64,000 bases of DNA, from IMG/VR virus record IMGVR_UViG_3300028394_000066, positions 15,214-79,213 of that record; one strand, given 5' to 3'. The first letter of the stretch is position 1. Each line of letters begins with the position of its first letter. Source of the DNA: a virus. Of this stretch, positions 5,883-47,551 are shown one piece after another. The notes under the pieces are model-generated. The model saw nothing but the letters and a program-made list of their open reading frames with translations. It searched no databases and was not told the DNA's origin. The position numbers and the translations under genes were made by a program.

Positions 5883-8800
5883 TGCCGATTAACCCAGATG
5901 CACCTATTTATCCCGAAGCGGATACAAGCCTGCTGCAAAATGGAGCAGAGCCGATTACTACTGTACCTGCGCCTCCATATAGCAGCCCAGATTACCAAGT
6001 TCCTAATGACCAGGTTCAGCCTGAAGTAGACATTGCTCTTCTTCCTGGAGTTCCCAATCAAAGAGGTCCCGCAGGTCCCACTGGTTCTACAGGACCAACT
6101 GGACCAATTGGGGCAGCCAGTACGGTAACTGGACCAACTGGTCCCACAGGAGCGACAGGGCTAACAGGCGCTACGGGTGCTACTGGTGCTACTGGTGCTA
6201 CTGGGTTGCAGGGTGTGCAGGGCGTAACTGGTCCTACAGGCGCACAAGGAATTCAAGGTTCTCAAGGTATTCAAGGAAATATAGGACCGACAGGTGCTCA
6301 GGGACCGACAGGTGCCGCGTCTACTGTCACGGGACCGACAGGTCCTACTGGTGCCGCGTCAACAGTTACTGGTCCAACTGGACCTACTGGACTTGTTGGT
6401 GCAACTGGTCCGACAGGCGCGACGGGAGCAACTGGGGCAGCGTCGCAGGTTACGGGTCCAACTGGTGCGACAGGTGCCGCTTCAACGGTTACAGGTCCGA
6501 CTGGACCTACAGGTGCTCAGGGTATTCAAGGACCGACAGGTTCTACAGGTATTACTGGTCCGACTGGTCCGACTGGTGCCGCTTCGACTGTGACAGGTCC
6601 GACAGGTGCAACTGGCGCAACAGGAGCAGCGAGCACTATCACTGGTCCAACGGGTTCCACGGGTTTAACTGGGCCTACTGGACCCACTGGTTCTCAGGGT
6701 GTGACTGGACCTACAGGTCCTACAGGCGCACAAGGTATCCAAGGACCCACTGGCACTCAAGGACCTACTGGTGCTCAAGGAACACAGGGCATTCAAGGTG
6801 TCACAGGTCCTACTGGACCTACAGGTGCTATCGGTGCGACTGGACCAACAGGTGCTTTAGGACCGACTGGTGTCAATGGTGACAGTTTTCAATTCCGAGG
6901 TGCTTACGGTGGCGCAGGGATTATTTACAACCTCAACGATGTAGTCGCATACAACGGCTCTTCGTACATTTGTCTAAACAACAACACCAGTGGCTATCAA
7001 CCAGACTCACTAATATCTTGGGATATTTTTGTAGAAAAAGGGGCAACTGGTCCTACTGGCGCTACTGGTGGAACAGGCGCTCAAGGAGTCACGGGACCCA
7101 CTGGTCCCACTGGCGCAACAGGGGCGCAAGGACCCACTGGTTCGACAGGACCAACAGGCGCAGCAAGCACTGTCACAGGTCCCACGGGTCCAACTGGTGC
7201 AACAGGAAATGCTTCAACAGTTACAGGACCGACTGGCCCAACAGGACCTACTGGCGCAACAGGCGCAGCGAGTACAGTTACTGGTCCAACTGGTCCAACT
7301 GGTGCTCAAGGTGACGCTTCTACAGTCACTGGTCCCACTGGACCAACAGGTGCTACGGGAGCAAACAGCACTGTCACAGGTCCAACTGGACCAACAGGTC
7401 CGACTGGAGCCACAGGCGCAGCGAGCACTGTAACTGGTCCAACAGGTCCGACTGGAAATACTGGCGCTACTGGTCCAACAGGAGCAAACTTCACGGGCTA
7501 TGACTATGAAATTCACGTTAGTCAAGTAGATGGAAATGATACTACTGGTAATGGTGATTTGCTTACTCCAGTTGCTTCTATTACTAAGGCATTGACTTTA
7601 GTAGATTCACAGCGTAAAACCATTATTGTTCACCCAGGAACGTACACTGAAAGTCCATCGATAACTACCCAATACACAACCTTGACTGGCCCAGGGCTTC
7701 TTGGCGGAAACATTGTAATCTCTGGAACGGTAAGCACAAGTACTGGCTGTACTATCTCAGGCATAAAGATGACAAACCTTACTGTCACTACGCCCACTGG
7801 TACAGGAAACGTAAACATCCTCAACTGTGAAGTTTCTGGAACTTTTACAAAGAGCAGTAATGCTGACTACACCGTTCTTCGTTTGTGTGATTTTAATGCC
7901 GCAAGTATTACTGGGGCTGGATTACTGGCTATCTTTGGTGGCAATCCAAACTTTATAACCGTCAACAATGCCAGTGCAAATGTAATTGTTAAGAGTGCCG
8001 TTACCGTCTCTCCAGTCCTAACTGCTGGAACACTGAGCCTTGTAGATTCTGTAGTCGGTGCTGCTGTGACCAATGCCGTGACATCTGCTGCTTCAAGCGT
8101 CATTACCTTAGCAAACTGCCAATTACTGACCTCAGCACTAAACAATGTCGCACCAGTTGTTTTAAGCGGCTTCTACTCAATCCTCAACTGTGTATACGAT
8201 AAGCCAAACTCAACCTTAGTTGCTTCGTCTGGTACTGGTGGCACAACAAACGCCGTTGATTACTTCCAATACATCAACGCAGATAAGTTCATCACTCAAG
8301 GTGGAACTTCATCTCAGTTTGTGAAGGGTGACGGCTCTCTTGACTCCACGGGACCTGTTTCGCCAACAGGTCCAACTGGACCAACTGGCGCAACAGGTCC
8401 CACAGGAGCCACTGGCGCTGCTAGTACGGTGACGGGTCCGACTGGACCAACTGGTGCGGCGTCAACTGTAACTGGTCCAACGGGTGCGACTGGCGCAGCG
8501 AGCACGGTTACTGGACCCACAGGTCCCACAGGAGCCACTGGCGCAGCCTCGACTGTCACAGGTCCGACAGGTGCCACTGGCGCAACTGGCGCAACAGGTC
8601 CAACAGGACCAACTGGCGCAACTGGACCAACAGGGGCGGCGTCTACAGTTACGGGTCCGACGGGTGCTCAGGGCGATAAGGGTGGACTCAAATACTACTT
8701 TAACTCAGACATTTCGTGGGAGAATGACGTAAATTCAGGAAATATCAGATTTTTTGCCGATACCGCAGCAACAACTAATAGTATTGACGTCTCTCTGACT

Positions 8801-43580: not shown

Positions 43581-45584
43581 ATGAACGTCATTACTACTAA
43601 AGAACAACTCGACGAGTTTGTTCAGTATTACGCCAAGGTTGAAGCATTCGCCTGGGACGTAGAGACCATCGGGGATAACCGTCTGTACCCCGTTATCAAC
43701 GACGTTTGTTGGATTTCTTTTGCGACCGATGGCCGTGTAGATGTTATTCCCATGGGCCACCCTAACGGTGAGCTTGAAGGCCACGACAAGCCTTTACTTC
43801 TTCCTGGACAACGACGACTCGCGGAAGGAAAACCCATCCTTGACTCGCACTACTCTAAAGACCAGCGTAAATGGACTGCTAAGTTTGGTGAAGCACCAGA
43901 GCAACTTACCCCTCGCCAAATCTTTGACGCTATTGAGCCGCTTATGTTTGGTCCCGCCTTAAAGATTGCGCACAACGCCAAGTTTGACTTAAAGTCAGTC
44001 GCAAAATACTACAAGGGGAGTGTTCCCGCAAAACCCCATTTTGATACCCTGATGGCTGCTTTTATCATCAACAACATGAACAAGTTTGACCTTGGACTTG
44101 CTGCTTGCGTAAAACGCGAATTAGGCATAGTGGTGGAGAAGGGTGTGGGAGAAAACGTCGCTCTACACGCGTTCTCAGAGGTAGCAAAGTATTCAGGTAT
44201 AGACGCTGAGGTTACTTGGAAACTTTATCAAGCCCTTGCCCCTAAGATTACTGGCAACCTACAAAAGGTTTGGCGTCTTGAAACTGACGTGCTAGCTGCT
44301 CTCTGTGACATGGAATTAACTGGTGCTTACTTAGACCAAGCAGCCCTCAAGACACTCGCAGAAGAGGTGGAAAAGGGCAAGATTGATGCCGAGGCCAAGT
44401 GCTACAAAGAAGCAGGAAAAGCCTTCTCTATCAACTCAGTTCCCGCCAAGCAGATGCTTTTGTTTGGGTCTGAGAACGGCCAGAAGCCCCGTCTGCCAGC
44501 CCCAAACCCTAAGTTTAAGACTGTGCTCACCCCTAAAGGACAAGCGGCTCACAAGGCTCGTGAGGCCCTTACACACATTCACTATTCTGTTTCAGCAGAA
44601 GCCCTCGAGTTTCATCGTGGCAAAGATGCTTTGGTTGACGCACTCCTTGAGTACCAAGACCTCAATAAACTTATGACTACCTACGTAACTCCGTATACAG
44701 GTGGGGACGTTAAGCGCGTCACCAATGGTAAAGAAAAAATTACTAAGCGTAAGAGCCTCCTTATCAATGGACGAGTACACACTAACTTCAAAGCCCACGG
44801 TGCCGAGACGGGACGGTTCTCGTCATCCGAACCAAACCTTCAAAACATTCCTTCATCAGGAGAATACGGAAAACTAGTACGCAATCTTTTTGTAGCTCCT
44901 CCTGGGTATAAGCTGGTTGTTGCAGACTACTCTCAGATAGAGCCAAGAATTATTGCATCTTTCTCAAAAGACCCAGTTATGCTGGAGAACTACATGACTG
45001 GAGGAGATATCTATACTACAATTGGTGATACGATGGGCGTCGACCGTCAGGCTGGAAAAGTCTTGGTCCTCGCAATCTCATACGGGGTAGGTCCCGACAA
45101 GATTGCAGCGTCTGTTGGGTGTACTGTAAAGGAAGCTAAAGACCTCCTTAACCGCTTTGAAGCAAAGTTTGCTTCCATTGCGCAGTACAAAGCCAAGGTA
45201 ATTCGTATGGCAAAGCAGGCGGGGCCCATCCCGTTTGTTGAAACAATGTTTGGACGCCGCCGCTACATTCCCGACCTTAAATCCTCAGAGTTTGGATTGC
45301 TGGGTAGGGCCGAACGTCAGGCGTTTAACACAATGATTCAGGGGTCAGCTGCTGACCTCATGAAACTGGCTTTAGTTCGTGCACACTCGTGTTTTGTAAA
45401 TGAGCCAGATATAAACTTAATTCTCACAGTACATGATGAACTTGTGACAATTTCGCCAGAGAATAAAGCTACTGAAGTTGCCGAGGCAATTCGTGAATCT
45501 ATGGAGGGTATACAGTTGTCTAATATTACTGTTCCGCTAATTGCAGACGTTAAAATTGTAGACAAGTGGGGTGAAGCAAAGTAA
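43581..45584 (+). CDS. polA: Family A DNA polymerase with 3'-5' exonuclease
   Basis: DVET, HNAKFD, TGRFSSSEPNLQNIP, ADYSQIEPR, KVLVLAISYG, QGSAAD, VHDE. Confidence 0.96.
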   Translation: MNVITTKEQLDEFVQYYAKVEAFAWDVETIGDNRLYPVINDVCWISFATDGRVDVIPMGHPNGELEGHDKPLLLPGQRRLAEGKPILDSHYSKDQRKWTAKFGEAPEQLTPRQIFDAIEPLMFGPALKIAHNAKFDLKSVAKYYKGSVPAKPHFDTLMAAFIINNMNKFDLGLAACVKRELGIVVEKGVGENVALHAFSEVAKYSGIDAEVTWKLYQALAPKITGNLQKVWRLETDVLAALCDMELTGAYLDQAALKTLAEEVEKGKIDAEAKCYKEAGKAFSINSVPAKQMLLFGSENGQKPRLPAPNPKFKTVLTPKGQAAHKAREALTHIHYSVSAEALEFHRGKDALVDALLEYQDLNKLMTTYVTPYTGGDVKRVTNGKEKITKRKSLLINGRVHTNFKAHGAETGRFSSSEPNLQNIPSSGEYGKLVRNLFVAPPGYKLVVADYSQIEPRIIASFSKDPVMLENYMTGGDIYTTIGDTMGVDRQAGKVLVLAISYGVGPDKIAASVGCTVKEAKDLLNRFEAKFASIAQYKAKVIRMAKQAGPIPFVETMFGRRRYIPDLKSSEFGLLGRAERQAFNTMIQGSAADLMKLALVRAHSCFVNEPDINLILTVHDELVTISPENKATEVAEAIRESMEGIQLSNITVPLIADVKIVDKWGEAK

Positions 45585-45991
45585 TGTTTTTTAAAAAGAA
45601 AAAGAAGACCCTTACTTTACGCGACATCAACAACCGCATTCGCGGGTTTATCTTGGATTCACAAATTCAGAATGCTCATGAACTAAGCGTAATTTTGGGA
45701 TGTTCCAATATTAGCAGTGAAGTTCAAGAGCGTGAAGAAGAGGAGAGCGACAAACGCATCGAAAAAATTTCATATTTAGTTCCACTACTATACGCTCACG
45801 TTCACCTTTTGGCAGAAGGAGCAGTGGAATACCAGAAGAGCACTCTACCTGAAGAATTTAAAGATTTTCCAGATGAGATTTGGATGGAAAGCCGTAGGAT
45901 GATGGAACAAGTCGCCATATCAACACTCGTGGGGTCTGTGTCACAACTTATTGACATGGGGCTCATTGATATTCCAAGAAAGCACAAGTAA
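45584..45991 (+). CDS. Hypothetical protein
   Basis: 135 aa, TAATG coupled to polA. Confidence 0.65.
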   Translation: MFFKKKKKTLTLRDINNRIRGFILDSQIQNAHELSVILGCSNISSEVQEREEEESDKRIEKISYLVPLLYAHVHLLAEGAVEYQKSTLPEEFKDFPDEIWMESRRMMEQVAISTLVGSVSQLIDMGLIDIPRKHK

Positions 45992-45995
45992 ACTA

Positions 45996-46085
45996 ATGAA
46001 TGAATACACAACAACCGACGCTGTAGACGGTTACGCCTGCCCCATCGACCCGATGGAAGCACTTCAGTGCGAGAGCTGCCAGTAA
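45996..46085 (+). CDS. 29-aa peptide resembling the C-terminal redox tail of ribonucleotide reductase alpha
   Basis: MNEYTTTDAVDGYACPIDPMEALQCESCQ; fills the intergenic gap; weak RBS. Confidence 0.6.
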   Translation: MNEYTTTDAVDGYACPIDPMEALQCESCQ

Positions 46086-46100
46086 TACTATAGGAGTAAA

Positions 46101-46478
46101 ATGAGTAACGCGGATTGGTGGGCCCAAAAACTGGGCAATACACAACCAGTACAGCAGGGGCGACCCGTTCCTAATATTCCTATGCCGCCGTCTCAACAAC
46201 CTATGACGCCGATGCCCACGTTTCAGCAGCAACCGTCTGCTGGGCGTGCGCAAAGCGCATCTCAAGTCTTATCCTGTCCTGAATGCGGTTCAGGAAACTA
46301 TATGTCTGTAGCAGGAACAGCGCCCCGTTGTTTTGATTGCGGGTACCCCATCGAGCAGTCGGGCTCCCGATACGGTAATTTATCTACCGCTCGAGTTGAA
46401 GGAGCAGCCCAATCCGCTCGCGGCAATGACACAAAAAGTAATTGGAATCCCCAAGGAATTATCGGAACTATAAATTAA
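46101..46478 (+). CDS. Zn-ribbon protein
   Basis: CPECGS...CFDCGY; P/Q-rich N-terminus. Confidence 0.75.
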   Translation: MSNADWWAQKLGNTQPVQQGRPVPNIPMPPSQQPMTPMPTFQQQPSAGRAQSASQVLSCPECGSGNYMSVAGTAPRCFDCGYPIEQSGSRYGNLSTARVEGAAQSARGNDTKSNWNPQGIIGTIN

Positions 46479-46507
46479 CCTACCCAACTAAAACAAGGAC
46501 TACTAAA

Positions 46508-47551
46508 TTGATAAACCCAGATGCATTAAAAGTTATGGCCCAAATTAACAAACGCTTTGGAGGCGATACTGTTGTTATTGGCGGAGATATTCGTAACGAC
46601 CTTATTCCTCGTGTTACTACTGGCTCTACTACTTTTGATTACGTTCTTGGTGGGGGTTTTCCTGCTAATCAGTGGAATGAACTCATCGGAGAACCTAGCC
46701 ACGGCAAAACGGCTATCGCGCTCAAAGTCATCGCAGCAAACCAGGCGCTAAATCCAGACTTTACTACCGTATGGATTGCGGCAGAGCAGTGGGTTCCCGA
46801 CTACGCAGCAATGTGTGGTGTCGATGCCAGCCGTGTAATCGTAGTTGAAACTAACATAATGGAAGAGGCGTACGACGCCGCCATTGCTTTTGCAGAATCA
46901 AAAGCGGTAGACGCTATTGTTATTGACTCATTGCCCGCTCTTGTTCCTGGGCCTGAAAATGAAAAAAACATGGACGAAATGACCGTTGGTCGTGGAGCTC
47001 TCTTGACTAACAAGTTTTTCCGTAAAGCTGGCGCTGCTATGAAACGCTCACTTACCGAAGAAGAGCGCCCCATCATGGGGCTCATCATTAACCAGTGGCG
47101 CATGAAGATTGGGGTCATGCATGGAGACCCCCGCACTACTCCTGGTGGAGTAGGAAAAGACTACGCGTACTTTACCCGCTCAGAAGTTCGTCGTGACGAA
47201 TGGATTGAAACTGGTTCTGGAGATAACAAAGTTCGTGTAGGACAGCGTATCAAAATTCGTGTCACCAAGAACAAGACTGCCCCGCCACAACAGATTGCGT
47301 ACGTGGATTTCTACTTTAAAGACCACTCAATCTACGAGGCAGGAGACTACGACACGGCTAAGGAAGTTGCCGCCATGTCTATTGTTAAACAAATTGTTGA
47401 CCGACGAGGTGGTTGGGTCTACTACGGTGAGCGTAAGTGGCAGGGCCTAGAGGCCCTTGTGAACTCTATCCGTGAAGAGGTAGACTTATTTGAAGAGCTA
47501 CGAGATAAGGTTCTCGAAGACTCACCCCAGATTCCTATTGTAACGGAGTAA
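46508..47551 (+). CDS. recA: RecA-like recombinase
   Basis: GEPSHGKT, IVIDSLPAL, INQWRMKIGVMHGDPRTTPGG, KNKTAPP. Confidence 0.95.
   Translation: MINPDALKVMAQINKRFGGDTVVIGGDIRNDLIPRVTTGSTTFDYVLGGGFPANQWNELIGEPSHGKTAIALKVIAANQALNPDFTTVWIAAEQWVPDYAAMCGVDASRVIVVETNIMEEAYDAAIAFAESKAVDAIVIDSLPALVPGPENEKNMDEMTVGRGALLTNKFFRKAGAAMKRSLTEEERPIMGLIINQWRMKIGVMHGDPRTTPGGVGKDYAYFTRSEVRRDEWIETGSGDNKVRVGQRIKIRVTKNKTAPPQQIAYVDFYFKDHSIYEAGDYDTAKEVAAMSIVKQIVDRRGGWVYYGERKWQGLEALVNSIREEVDLFEELRDKVLEDSPQIPIVTE

Follow-up and report, generated by a model that had tools for sequence, protein, structure and literature searches.

A stand-alone relative of the class Ia ribonucleotide reductase redox tail in a freshwater phage and its putative role as a trans-acting electron shuttle

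Class I ribonucleotide reductases (RNRs) are commonly described with a reductive tail on their catalytic alpha subunit, examples of its cysteine pair being C754/C759 of Escherichia coli NrdA and the CX2C element of the eukaryotic R1 protein. After each turnover of these enzymes, the Cys pair at the end of alpha swings into the active site, reduces the disulfide there and moves out again to be recharged by thioredoxin, glutaredoxin or NrdH (PMC4078304, PMC6382339). In the literature examined, split RNRs of free-living organisms are described for class II only, in an example that was called unique, namely the enzyme of Pseudomonas aeruginosa, whose partner polypeptide NrdJb "mediates efficient reductive dithiol exchange" (PMC4520616). 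This NrdJa/NrdJb pair is the closest known system to the phage tail peptide that is the subject of the present study, and our literature search found no description of the motif of this peptide or of a detached class I RNR tail.

The peptide gene resides in a stretch of 64,000 nucleotides (hereafter the window; positions 15,214 to 79,213 of IMG/VR record IMGVR_UViG_3300028394_000066), which belongs to the 79.2-kb virus record G000 of a freshwater phage, estimated to be 82% complete, and whose DNA was also found in metagenomes from freshwater and lakes that belong to several studies. A first-pass annotation, made from the letters of the window alone, had proposed a 29-codon ORF in the gap between the gene that follows polA and the Zn-ribbon/recA genes, and this ORF is indeed present on the + strand at 45996..46085, with its ATG at 45996 and its TAA stop codon at 46083-46085. 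On its 5' side, polA (43581-45584) is followed by a 135-aa ORF without assigned function (45584..45991, + strand), which has no Pfam, NCBIfam or PHROG family match and is 73% identical in the syntenic relative L032, with the same junction to the peptide ORF. On the other side, a Zn-ribbon-like ORF of 125 aa (46101-46478) with a clear GGAG ribosome-binding site starts 15 nt after the peptide ORF and is followed by recA (46442-47551; PF00154) and, beyond it, by a WhiB gene (PF02467) and more replication/recombination genes assigned with Pfam. The listed recA start is a TTG that creates a 37-nt overlap with the end of the Zn-ribbon-like ORF, and the true start may be further downstream.

The product is an acidic peptide of roughly 3 kDa with six Asp/Glu and no Lys/Arg residues and with cysteines at positions 15, 25 and 28, so that the proposed acidic character and the ending C-x9-C-x-x-C-Q-stop both hold. 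Codons 16-23 (46041..46064, + strand) encode P-I-D-P-M-E-A-L, an invariant or nearly invariant motif 5' of the Cys pair that may serve in docking, and codons 25-29 (46068..46082, + strand) encode C-E-S-C-Q, i.e. the terminal CxxC redox pair with Gln as the last residue. Codon 15 (46038..46040, + strand) specifies a third Cys, in the context C-P-I-D-P-M, a residue shared with the fused NrdA tails and with roughly half of the phage peptides. Only 4 nt separate the stop codon of the 135-aa ORF from the peptide ATG at 45996, and no Shine-Dalgarno sequence precedes this ATG, from which it appears likely that the peptide is translated through coupling to the upstream ORF. A 44-aa form of the ORF extended to a TTG is not conserved, as L032 has a stop there. 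Reverse-strand ORFs across the site were considered and rejected, their start not being conserved and the ORFs being absent from L032. A promoter and terminator scan yielded nothing above shuffled expectation. Metatranscriptome contigs from an RNA library span both flanks and break inside the ORF (46010-46041); such contigs cannot show transcription, and DNA carry-over is possible.

The relationship to RNR emerges from a search with the family profile A2 against 5.8 billion proteins, restricted to proteins longer than the query (the first row of A2 is the 44-aa TTG-extended window ORF, used only for the length minimum of the search). The profile matches the extreme C-termini of actinobacterial class Ia NrdA proteins of 840-1044 aa with E values of 3e-8 to 3e-5. 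These proteins carry the ATP-cone PF03477 together with PF00317 and PF02867 and come from Demequina, Cellulomonas, Nocardioides, Serinicoccus, Ornithinimicrobium and others. Their chains end in a long Ala/Pro-rich linker followed by V-D-G-V-A-C-P-V-D-P-M-E-A-L-Q-C-E-S-C-Q-stop; the terminal Cys pair of the window peptide aligns with theirs, and the residue at the position of codon 15 is Cys in the full-length fused tails examined. By tblastn, the window peptide is 82.6% identical to residues 978-1000 of Demequina NrdA, the last 23 of that protein. The resemblance to RNR alpha C-termini put forward by the first-pass annotation is hence borne out (83% identity over 23 residues, when rounded), and both kinds of context that it had named for a check, RNR C-termini and small ORFs beside tail-less nrdA genes, were found. 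The window ORF is free-standing, and no PF02867 gene is present in the 79-kb record. The peptide is thus not covalently part of an alpha subunit, and it is therefore a detached homologue of the tail and not a tail in the strict sense.

The same tail also forms the C-terminus of NrdH-like redoxins (about 99 aa, active site CVQC; TIGR02194, E 1e-22), a fusion that ties the tail to the RNR reductant. Such fusions were seen in the metagenomic proteins P0030, P0048, P0077-P0082 and others. Proteins of about 93 aa bear it as well, in this case behind an unrelated phage domain, phrog_1178, that spans about 70 aa (P0027, P0042 and, from Planctomonas, P0121). The existence of the class Ia tail as a stand-alone micropeptide family is demonstrated by the present study.

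How widespread the free-standing form is among phages was addressed with a degenerate DNA pattern for the last 14 codons and the stop (P-I-D-P-M-[DE]-x-L-x-C-x-x-C-Q-stop), which was run on IMG/VR. It matches 95 phage loci, nearly all of which have an ATG, GTG or TTG start 23-36 codons before the stop. They encode 77 distinct peptides with a mean net charge of -5.7, none of which ends a large protein, and the consensus of the family (23-36 aa) reads P-[IV]-D-P-M-[DE]-x-L-x-C-x-S-C-Q-stop. In an alignment of 58 family members (A1), C25, C28 and Q29 are invariant; P16, I17, D18, P19 and M20 are invariant as well and L23 reaches at least 90%, these being residues that the search pattern imposes. 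The P-[IV]-D-P-M motif also occurs in the fused NrdA tails and in nrdB-linked phage peptides that were fetched without the pattern, and a [VI]-[DGN]-G-[YIF] element is conserved in the family although it lies outside the searched pattern. The codon-15 position is more variable, with Cys in 36, Val in 31, Ala and Ile in 4 each and Pro in 1 of 76 distinct phage peptides, and with Ile in L032. Many of the 95 loci also carry WhiB genes and are therefore considered to derive from actinophages.

A tblastn search against GenBank phages revealed the same type of peptide in three isolated phages. The family members of Pontimonas phage phiPsal1 (L001:3995-4087) and Clavibacter phage CN1A (L003:2983-3054) are both unannotated and located in "intergenic" gaps, and both phages can be cultivated together with their hosts for experiments. 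The third, in Pseudanabaena phage Pan2 (ON968453; L002:3989-4069), is a 26-aa member ending in C-P-N-D-P-A-D-L-V-S-C-E-S-C-Q, which places the peptide family in a cyanophage; it overlaps, in a different frame, the annotated 27-aa gene Pan2_27, the annotation of which is probably in the wrong frame. A blastn search with the 1.1-kb peptide region against 50,697 phage records gave no match. The phage contig L077 has two tandem tail-peptide genes (7949-8116 and 8116-8256, overlapping in TAATG) for products of 55 and 46 aa, the N-termini of which are both extended by a stretch that looks helical; L016, L056, L073 and L086 have a similar form of 66 aa. No family model in Pfam, NCBIfam or PHROGs covers the tail peptide. 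Its gene is a phage auxiliary gene of a new kind, one that escapes standard gene callers and is missing from family databases. What speaks for a phage auxiliary metabolic gene is its occurrence at the 95 loci and in the three isolated phages, its retention in L032 and its homologues in Microbacteriaceae.

The first-pass annotation had made its case dependent on conservation of the ORF, and the ORF is kept both in L032 and at the 95 IMG/VR loci. In the syntenic relative L032/L246 (PolA 86% identical, neighbouring genes 70-73%), the peptide ORF occupies the same slot and differs from that of the window at 8 amino acids, at 4 codons with synonymous changes and by an indel of 2 codons. Related strains, represented by contigs from other lake samples, show 6 base changes within the ORF. 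The 5 silent ones comprise a switch of the Leu codon CTT to TTG, and the single replacement, D8N, falls into the variable N-terminal part. Comparison of these sequences demonstrates purifying selection on the peptide ORF. Given the 95 loci with a start codon, the retention in L032, the silent variants and the recovery of the ORF at 17 of 32 loci that were fetched via NrdB (see below), the last three of which do not depend on the search pattern, the 29-codon ORF is confirmed as a real gene, far beyond what chance would produce.

With respect to RNR genes, the first-pass annotation had stated that none is present, which is true for the window; the same phage record, however, carries a full-length nrdB for the RNR small subunit (G000:C1:4377-5357, equivalent to L220:4377-5357; PF00268, E 2e-73), about 57 kb upstream of the peptide gene and outside the window. 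No RNR alpha (PF02867), glutaredoxin or thioredoxin was found in G000. Neighbours of this nrdB are an HSP20 gene (L220:2822-3349) and genes for cell-wall hydrolases (NlpC/P60, M23). The encoded NrdB is 84-96% identical to the NrdB of other phage-like contigs, which are its best matches, and about 79-80% identical to cellular NrdB proteins of several phyla, so that the search singled out no host. NrdB of this type is unusually well conserved between phyla, as about 79-80% identity is seen among the G000 phage, Microbacteriaceae and Saccharibacteria. The C-terminus of beta is the end that binds alpha, and that of the G000 NrdB is nearly identical to the C-terminus of Microbacteriaceae NrdB.

The combination of nrdB and tail without alpha is also found in G405, a syntenic relative of 93,151 bp that has terminal repeats and is 100% complete, and no alpha was found in records G406 and G407, both with terminal repeats and estimated by CheckV at 68% and 71%. 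The idea that the phage supplies the tail in trans fits this gene content of G000 and of the complete relatives. Independently of the peptide, 32 phage nrdB loci were fetched via NrdB with 10-kb flanks. A tail ORF is present in 17 of them, often abutting nrdB and in several cases ending exactly at the nrdB start, and the peptides include variants with P-[VMTQ]-D-P-M and P-I-D-P-A. Only 3 of the 32 loci contain nrdA, and in these the alpha is tail-less and the peptide gene lies about 1 kb upstream; the NrdA proteins of phages L248 and L242 end without Cys. The RNR module of L248 (5991-10981; also L242 and L245) comprises, in this order, genes for a DUF7455 protein, the tail peptide, a free-standing LAGLIDADG-like ORF of 321 aa, the tail-less nrdA and nrdB, and the nrdA ORF of L245, with 1120 aa, probably contains an inserted element. 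In the record to which L232 belongs, that of a phage with a peptide-nrdB pair, a sub-threshold PF02867 match (G408:C1:4961-5305; 14.6 bits, E 3e-4) lies in a 703-aa ORF that might be a very divergent RNR-like protein or a chance match. Phages thus repeatedly carry the two exchangeable partners of alpha, beta and the tail, and not alpha itself. At most of the 95 peptide loci, the flanks lack RNR genes, and the window peptide gene sits in a replication/recombination module some 57 kb from nrdB, so that the link to RNR in G000 rests on homology and co-occurrence.

The question arises whether a detached class I tail is also used by cellular organisms. A scan of bacteria with one genome per species returned at least 120 loci, and nearly all of those listed belong to Microbacteriaceae. 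In about 45 of the 120 loci listed, the gene order is nrdA, micro-ORF, nrdB. In Clavibacter tessellarius L163, for example, NrdA (834 aa) has a Gly/Ala/Pro-rich end without Cys, the nrdA stop overlaps the start of a 24-codon tail ORF (TGATG), and nrdB follows 92 nt further on. Two MAGs that were reached via NrdB and not via the peptide, one of Aurantimicrobium and one recorded under the name Synechococcus sp. UW140, have the same gene order. A catalytic subunit without the Cys pair, next to a gene that supplies it, is hence found in L163 and in phages L248 and L242; the window's own phage, lacking alpha, does not show this arrangement. The split-RNR system that the first-pass annotation had considered as one possibility does exist in bacteria, with tail-less nrdA, micro-ORF and nrdB side by side. 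The alpha subunit of this subclass has an ATP-cone, and between split and fused forms the alpha cores share 70-75% identity, which indicates one enzyme type that differs in whether the tail is attached. The bacterial peptides retrieved have Val or Ile in place of the third Cys, most of them having come through a pattern that excludes Cys there. In an even sample of 401 genomes of the class, the motif was found in only 2, which points to a narrow distribution. The gene order in these genomes demonstrates that the tail of the Microbacteriaceae enzyme is encoded as a separate micro-gene.

The remaining bacterial loci are orphan copies elsewhere in the chromosome with a strong ribosome-binding site upstream. 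At 60-110 nt upstream of these orphan micro-ORFs, two 16-bp partial palindromes occur whose starts are 32 bp apart; box 1 reads A-C-A-C-T-A-C-A-T-G-T-A-G-T-G-G and contains all six positions that define NrdR sites (C4, A6, A8, T9, T11, G13). The NrdR operator consists of two 16-bp boxes that are 15-16 bp apart (PMC13584703). The same pair of boxes is located upstream of nrdA in 22-24 of 26 loci, and since the orphan genes share it with nrdA, they are members of the nrd regulon. When eight of the bacterial orphan loci were scanned with Rfam, only tRNAs were returned; the conserved upstream element is a DNA operator and not a known RNA. Between the two NrdR-type boxes, a TGACA-N4-TGTCA inverted repeat was observed in L099-L218 (e.g. 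L124, L113, L159 and L190). For the phage, neither the window nor the initial 15.3 kb of the record, where nrdB is located, yielded an NrdR box.

From our point of view, the peptide probably represents a trans-acting electron-shuttle tail for the RNR alpha of the host. On the basis of homology, gene content, linkage and purifying selection, we infer that it is translated, docks, transfers electrons and benefits the phage. As such, the phage peptide, made from the replication module, would do the job of the fused tail in trans: it would dock on host alpha via P-[IV]-D-P-M-[DE]-x-L, in place of a tether, and its C-x-S-C-Q end would deliver two electrons to the active site. The same motif might instead, or also, dock the redoxin. 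The oxidised peptide would then be recharged by a redoxin of the host, as the phage encodes none. Together with the phage beta (G000:4377-5357), it could raise RNR capacity for phage DNA synthesis, and both tail and beta may escape repression by host NrdR, because the window and the first 15.3 kb of the record are free of NrdR boxes. Whether freshwater and soil actinobacterial phages in general take over host alpha by means of their own beta and a diffusible 3-kDa electron-shuttle peptide, outside NrdR control, is a broader proposal to which we would give an even chance.

Docking of the peptide to RNR, a check named by the first-pass annotation, was modelled for the tail-less NrdA of phage L248 and its own 35-aa peptide. 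The three predictions gave ipSAE values of 0.49, 0.47 and 0.43 (the 0.47 standing against 0.00 for the best of 3 controls), which is graded as "weak support". In the calibration, 58 of 80 solved complexes and 2 of 110 mismatched pairs attain the mark; scores of at most 0.60 account for only 7 of these solved complexes and for both mismatches. The pLDDT of the partner is at least 57, and the runs agree in at least 60% of contacts. Along with the NrdH-tail fusions, this prediction is indirect evidence that the peptide may reduce the active-site disulfide and be re-reduced by a redoxin. It counts against a tail in trans that the high local concentration of a tethered tail is lost once the peptide is free.

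The same sequence features could serve an opposite end, in that a free tail might act as a decoy or inhibitor which competes with the tail or peptide of the host for the alpha active site or for NrdH/thioredoxin and thereby throttles or redirects dNTP synthesis. Yeast Sml1, which acts on the C-terminal region of R1, offers a comparison. A tail-less host alpha would be complemented by the peptide, and a host alpha with a tail of its own would compete with it. Such a role would suit a host that already has a covalent tail, which might be the case here as the window peptide shares its three cysteines with the fused tails, and it would suit the fact that most of the 95 phage loci have no flanking RNR gene. 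However, the phage has its own nrdB and in relatives the peptide gene abuts nrdB in an operon-like manner, which fits boosting and not blocking; in bacteria, the nrdAB enzyme has no tail other than this peptide; and a lytic phage with its own DNA polymerase needs dNTPs. We therefore regard a decoy as unlikely. That the peptide boosts or complements host RNR is favoured over hijacking or inhibition solely by the linkage to nrdB. Somewhat less likely still is a general thiol-disulfide micropeptide or redoxin adaptor with a main target other than RNR, which might, for instance, titrate NrdH/thioredoxin, redirect it to some other protein of phage or host, or bind a metal via its three cysteines. 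The fusions of the tail to an NrdH-like redoxin and to the unrelated phrog_1178 domain could be read in this way, as could the position of the gene in a replication/recombination module beside a Zn-ribbon protein and RecA. Yet all informative contexts, namely fused NrdA, nrdA-peptide-nrdB, the NrdR operator and the phage peptide-nrdB pairs, are RNR contexts, and a metal site is made less plausible by the third Cys, the position of which varies (Val in 31 of the 76 peptides) and is Ile in the closest relative.

The presence of bacterial orphan copies in the NrdR regulon and the ATP-cone in the alpha of this subclass might also be taken to indicate a regulatory role in the nrd system, with the peptide acting on NrdR or on the oligomeric state of alpha and lifting repression or dATP inhibition. 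We found no link between the peptide and the NrdR protein, however, and both the invariant terminal CxxC and the homology to a catalytic tail point to redox chemistry, so that regulation seems improbable to us. Hardly credible, finally, is a non-functional relic, be it the leftover 3' end of a lost phage nrdA or a chance ORF. While the gene lacks a Shine-Dalgarno sequence, is too short for gene callers and is unannotated in the GenBank phages, the 95 loci encode 77 distinct peptides with a start at a fixed distance and a stop right after the Gln, the ORF is kept in a diverged syntenic relative, natural variants are biased to silent changes, and the [VI]-[DG]-G-[YIF] element outside the searched pattern is conserved. 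A RiPP precursor was also considered and was dropped, as no modification enzyme is linked to the peptide in any context.

If the peptide does act as a tail in trans, it would be the smallest known product of an auxiliary metabolic gene and a natural demonstration of a class I RNR tail that works untethered. Bacteria use a stand-alone tail within their nrd regulon, and many phages, including complete genomes without alpha, carry it, often with nrdB. The steps of docking, active-site reduction and recharging of the tail thereby become directly testable, since synthetic peptides of about 25-30 residues lend themselves to titration, mutation and trapping. RNR-based marker surveys of phages that tally alpha or beta genes alone may in turn misjudge which phages manipulate dNTP supply. 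What the present analysis adds is an orphan nrdB and a tail gene 57 kb apart, complete relatives without alpha and a frequent peptide-nrdB cassette, along with the NrdR operator on bacterial orphans, the NrdH-tail fusions and the silent-site evidence from natural variants.

Compared with the covalent tails of actinobacterial class Ia enzymes (...C-P-[IV]-D-P-M-E-x-L-Q-C-[DE]-S-C-Q), the window peptide is homologous, acidic and probably flexible and has the terminal Cys pair, and by analogy it is presumed to share their role in re-reduction of the active site and recharging by thioredoxin, glutaredoxin or NrdH; it differs in being a separate 29-aa product in a phage without alpha. With the nrdA-micro-ORF-nrdB operons and the NrdR-controlled orphans of Microbacteriaceae it shares family and motif, and the phage gene is the viral counterpart of these copies, which lie in the nrdAB operon or behind NrdR boxes, whereas neither applies to the copy of the window phage. 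In Facklamia ignava, a glutaredoxin domain is fused to NrdB. Like the NrdH-tail fusions, this arrangement couples parts of the RNR electron-delivery chain, but it joins the reductant to the enzyme, while the tail described here stands alone or is fused to an NrdH-like reductant. The NrdJa/NrdJb system resembles the present one in that catalytic and reductive parts are separate, cooperating polypeptides, and it thus provides a biochemical precedent for a working detached reductive C-terminal part. It differs in being of class II and B12-dependent and in that NrdJb is encoded next to NrdJa in a bacterium. NrdJb is moreover a folded protein of a few hundred residues and not a peptide of about 25-30 aa.
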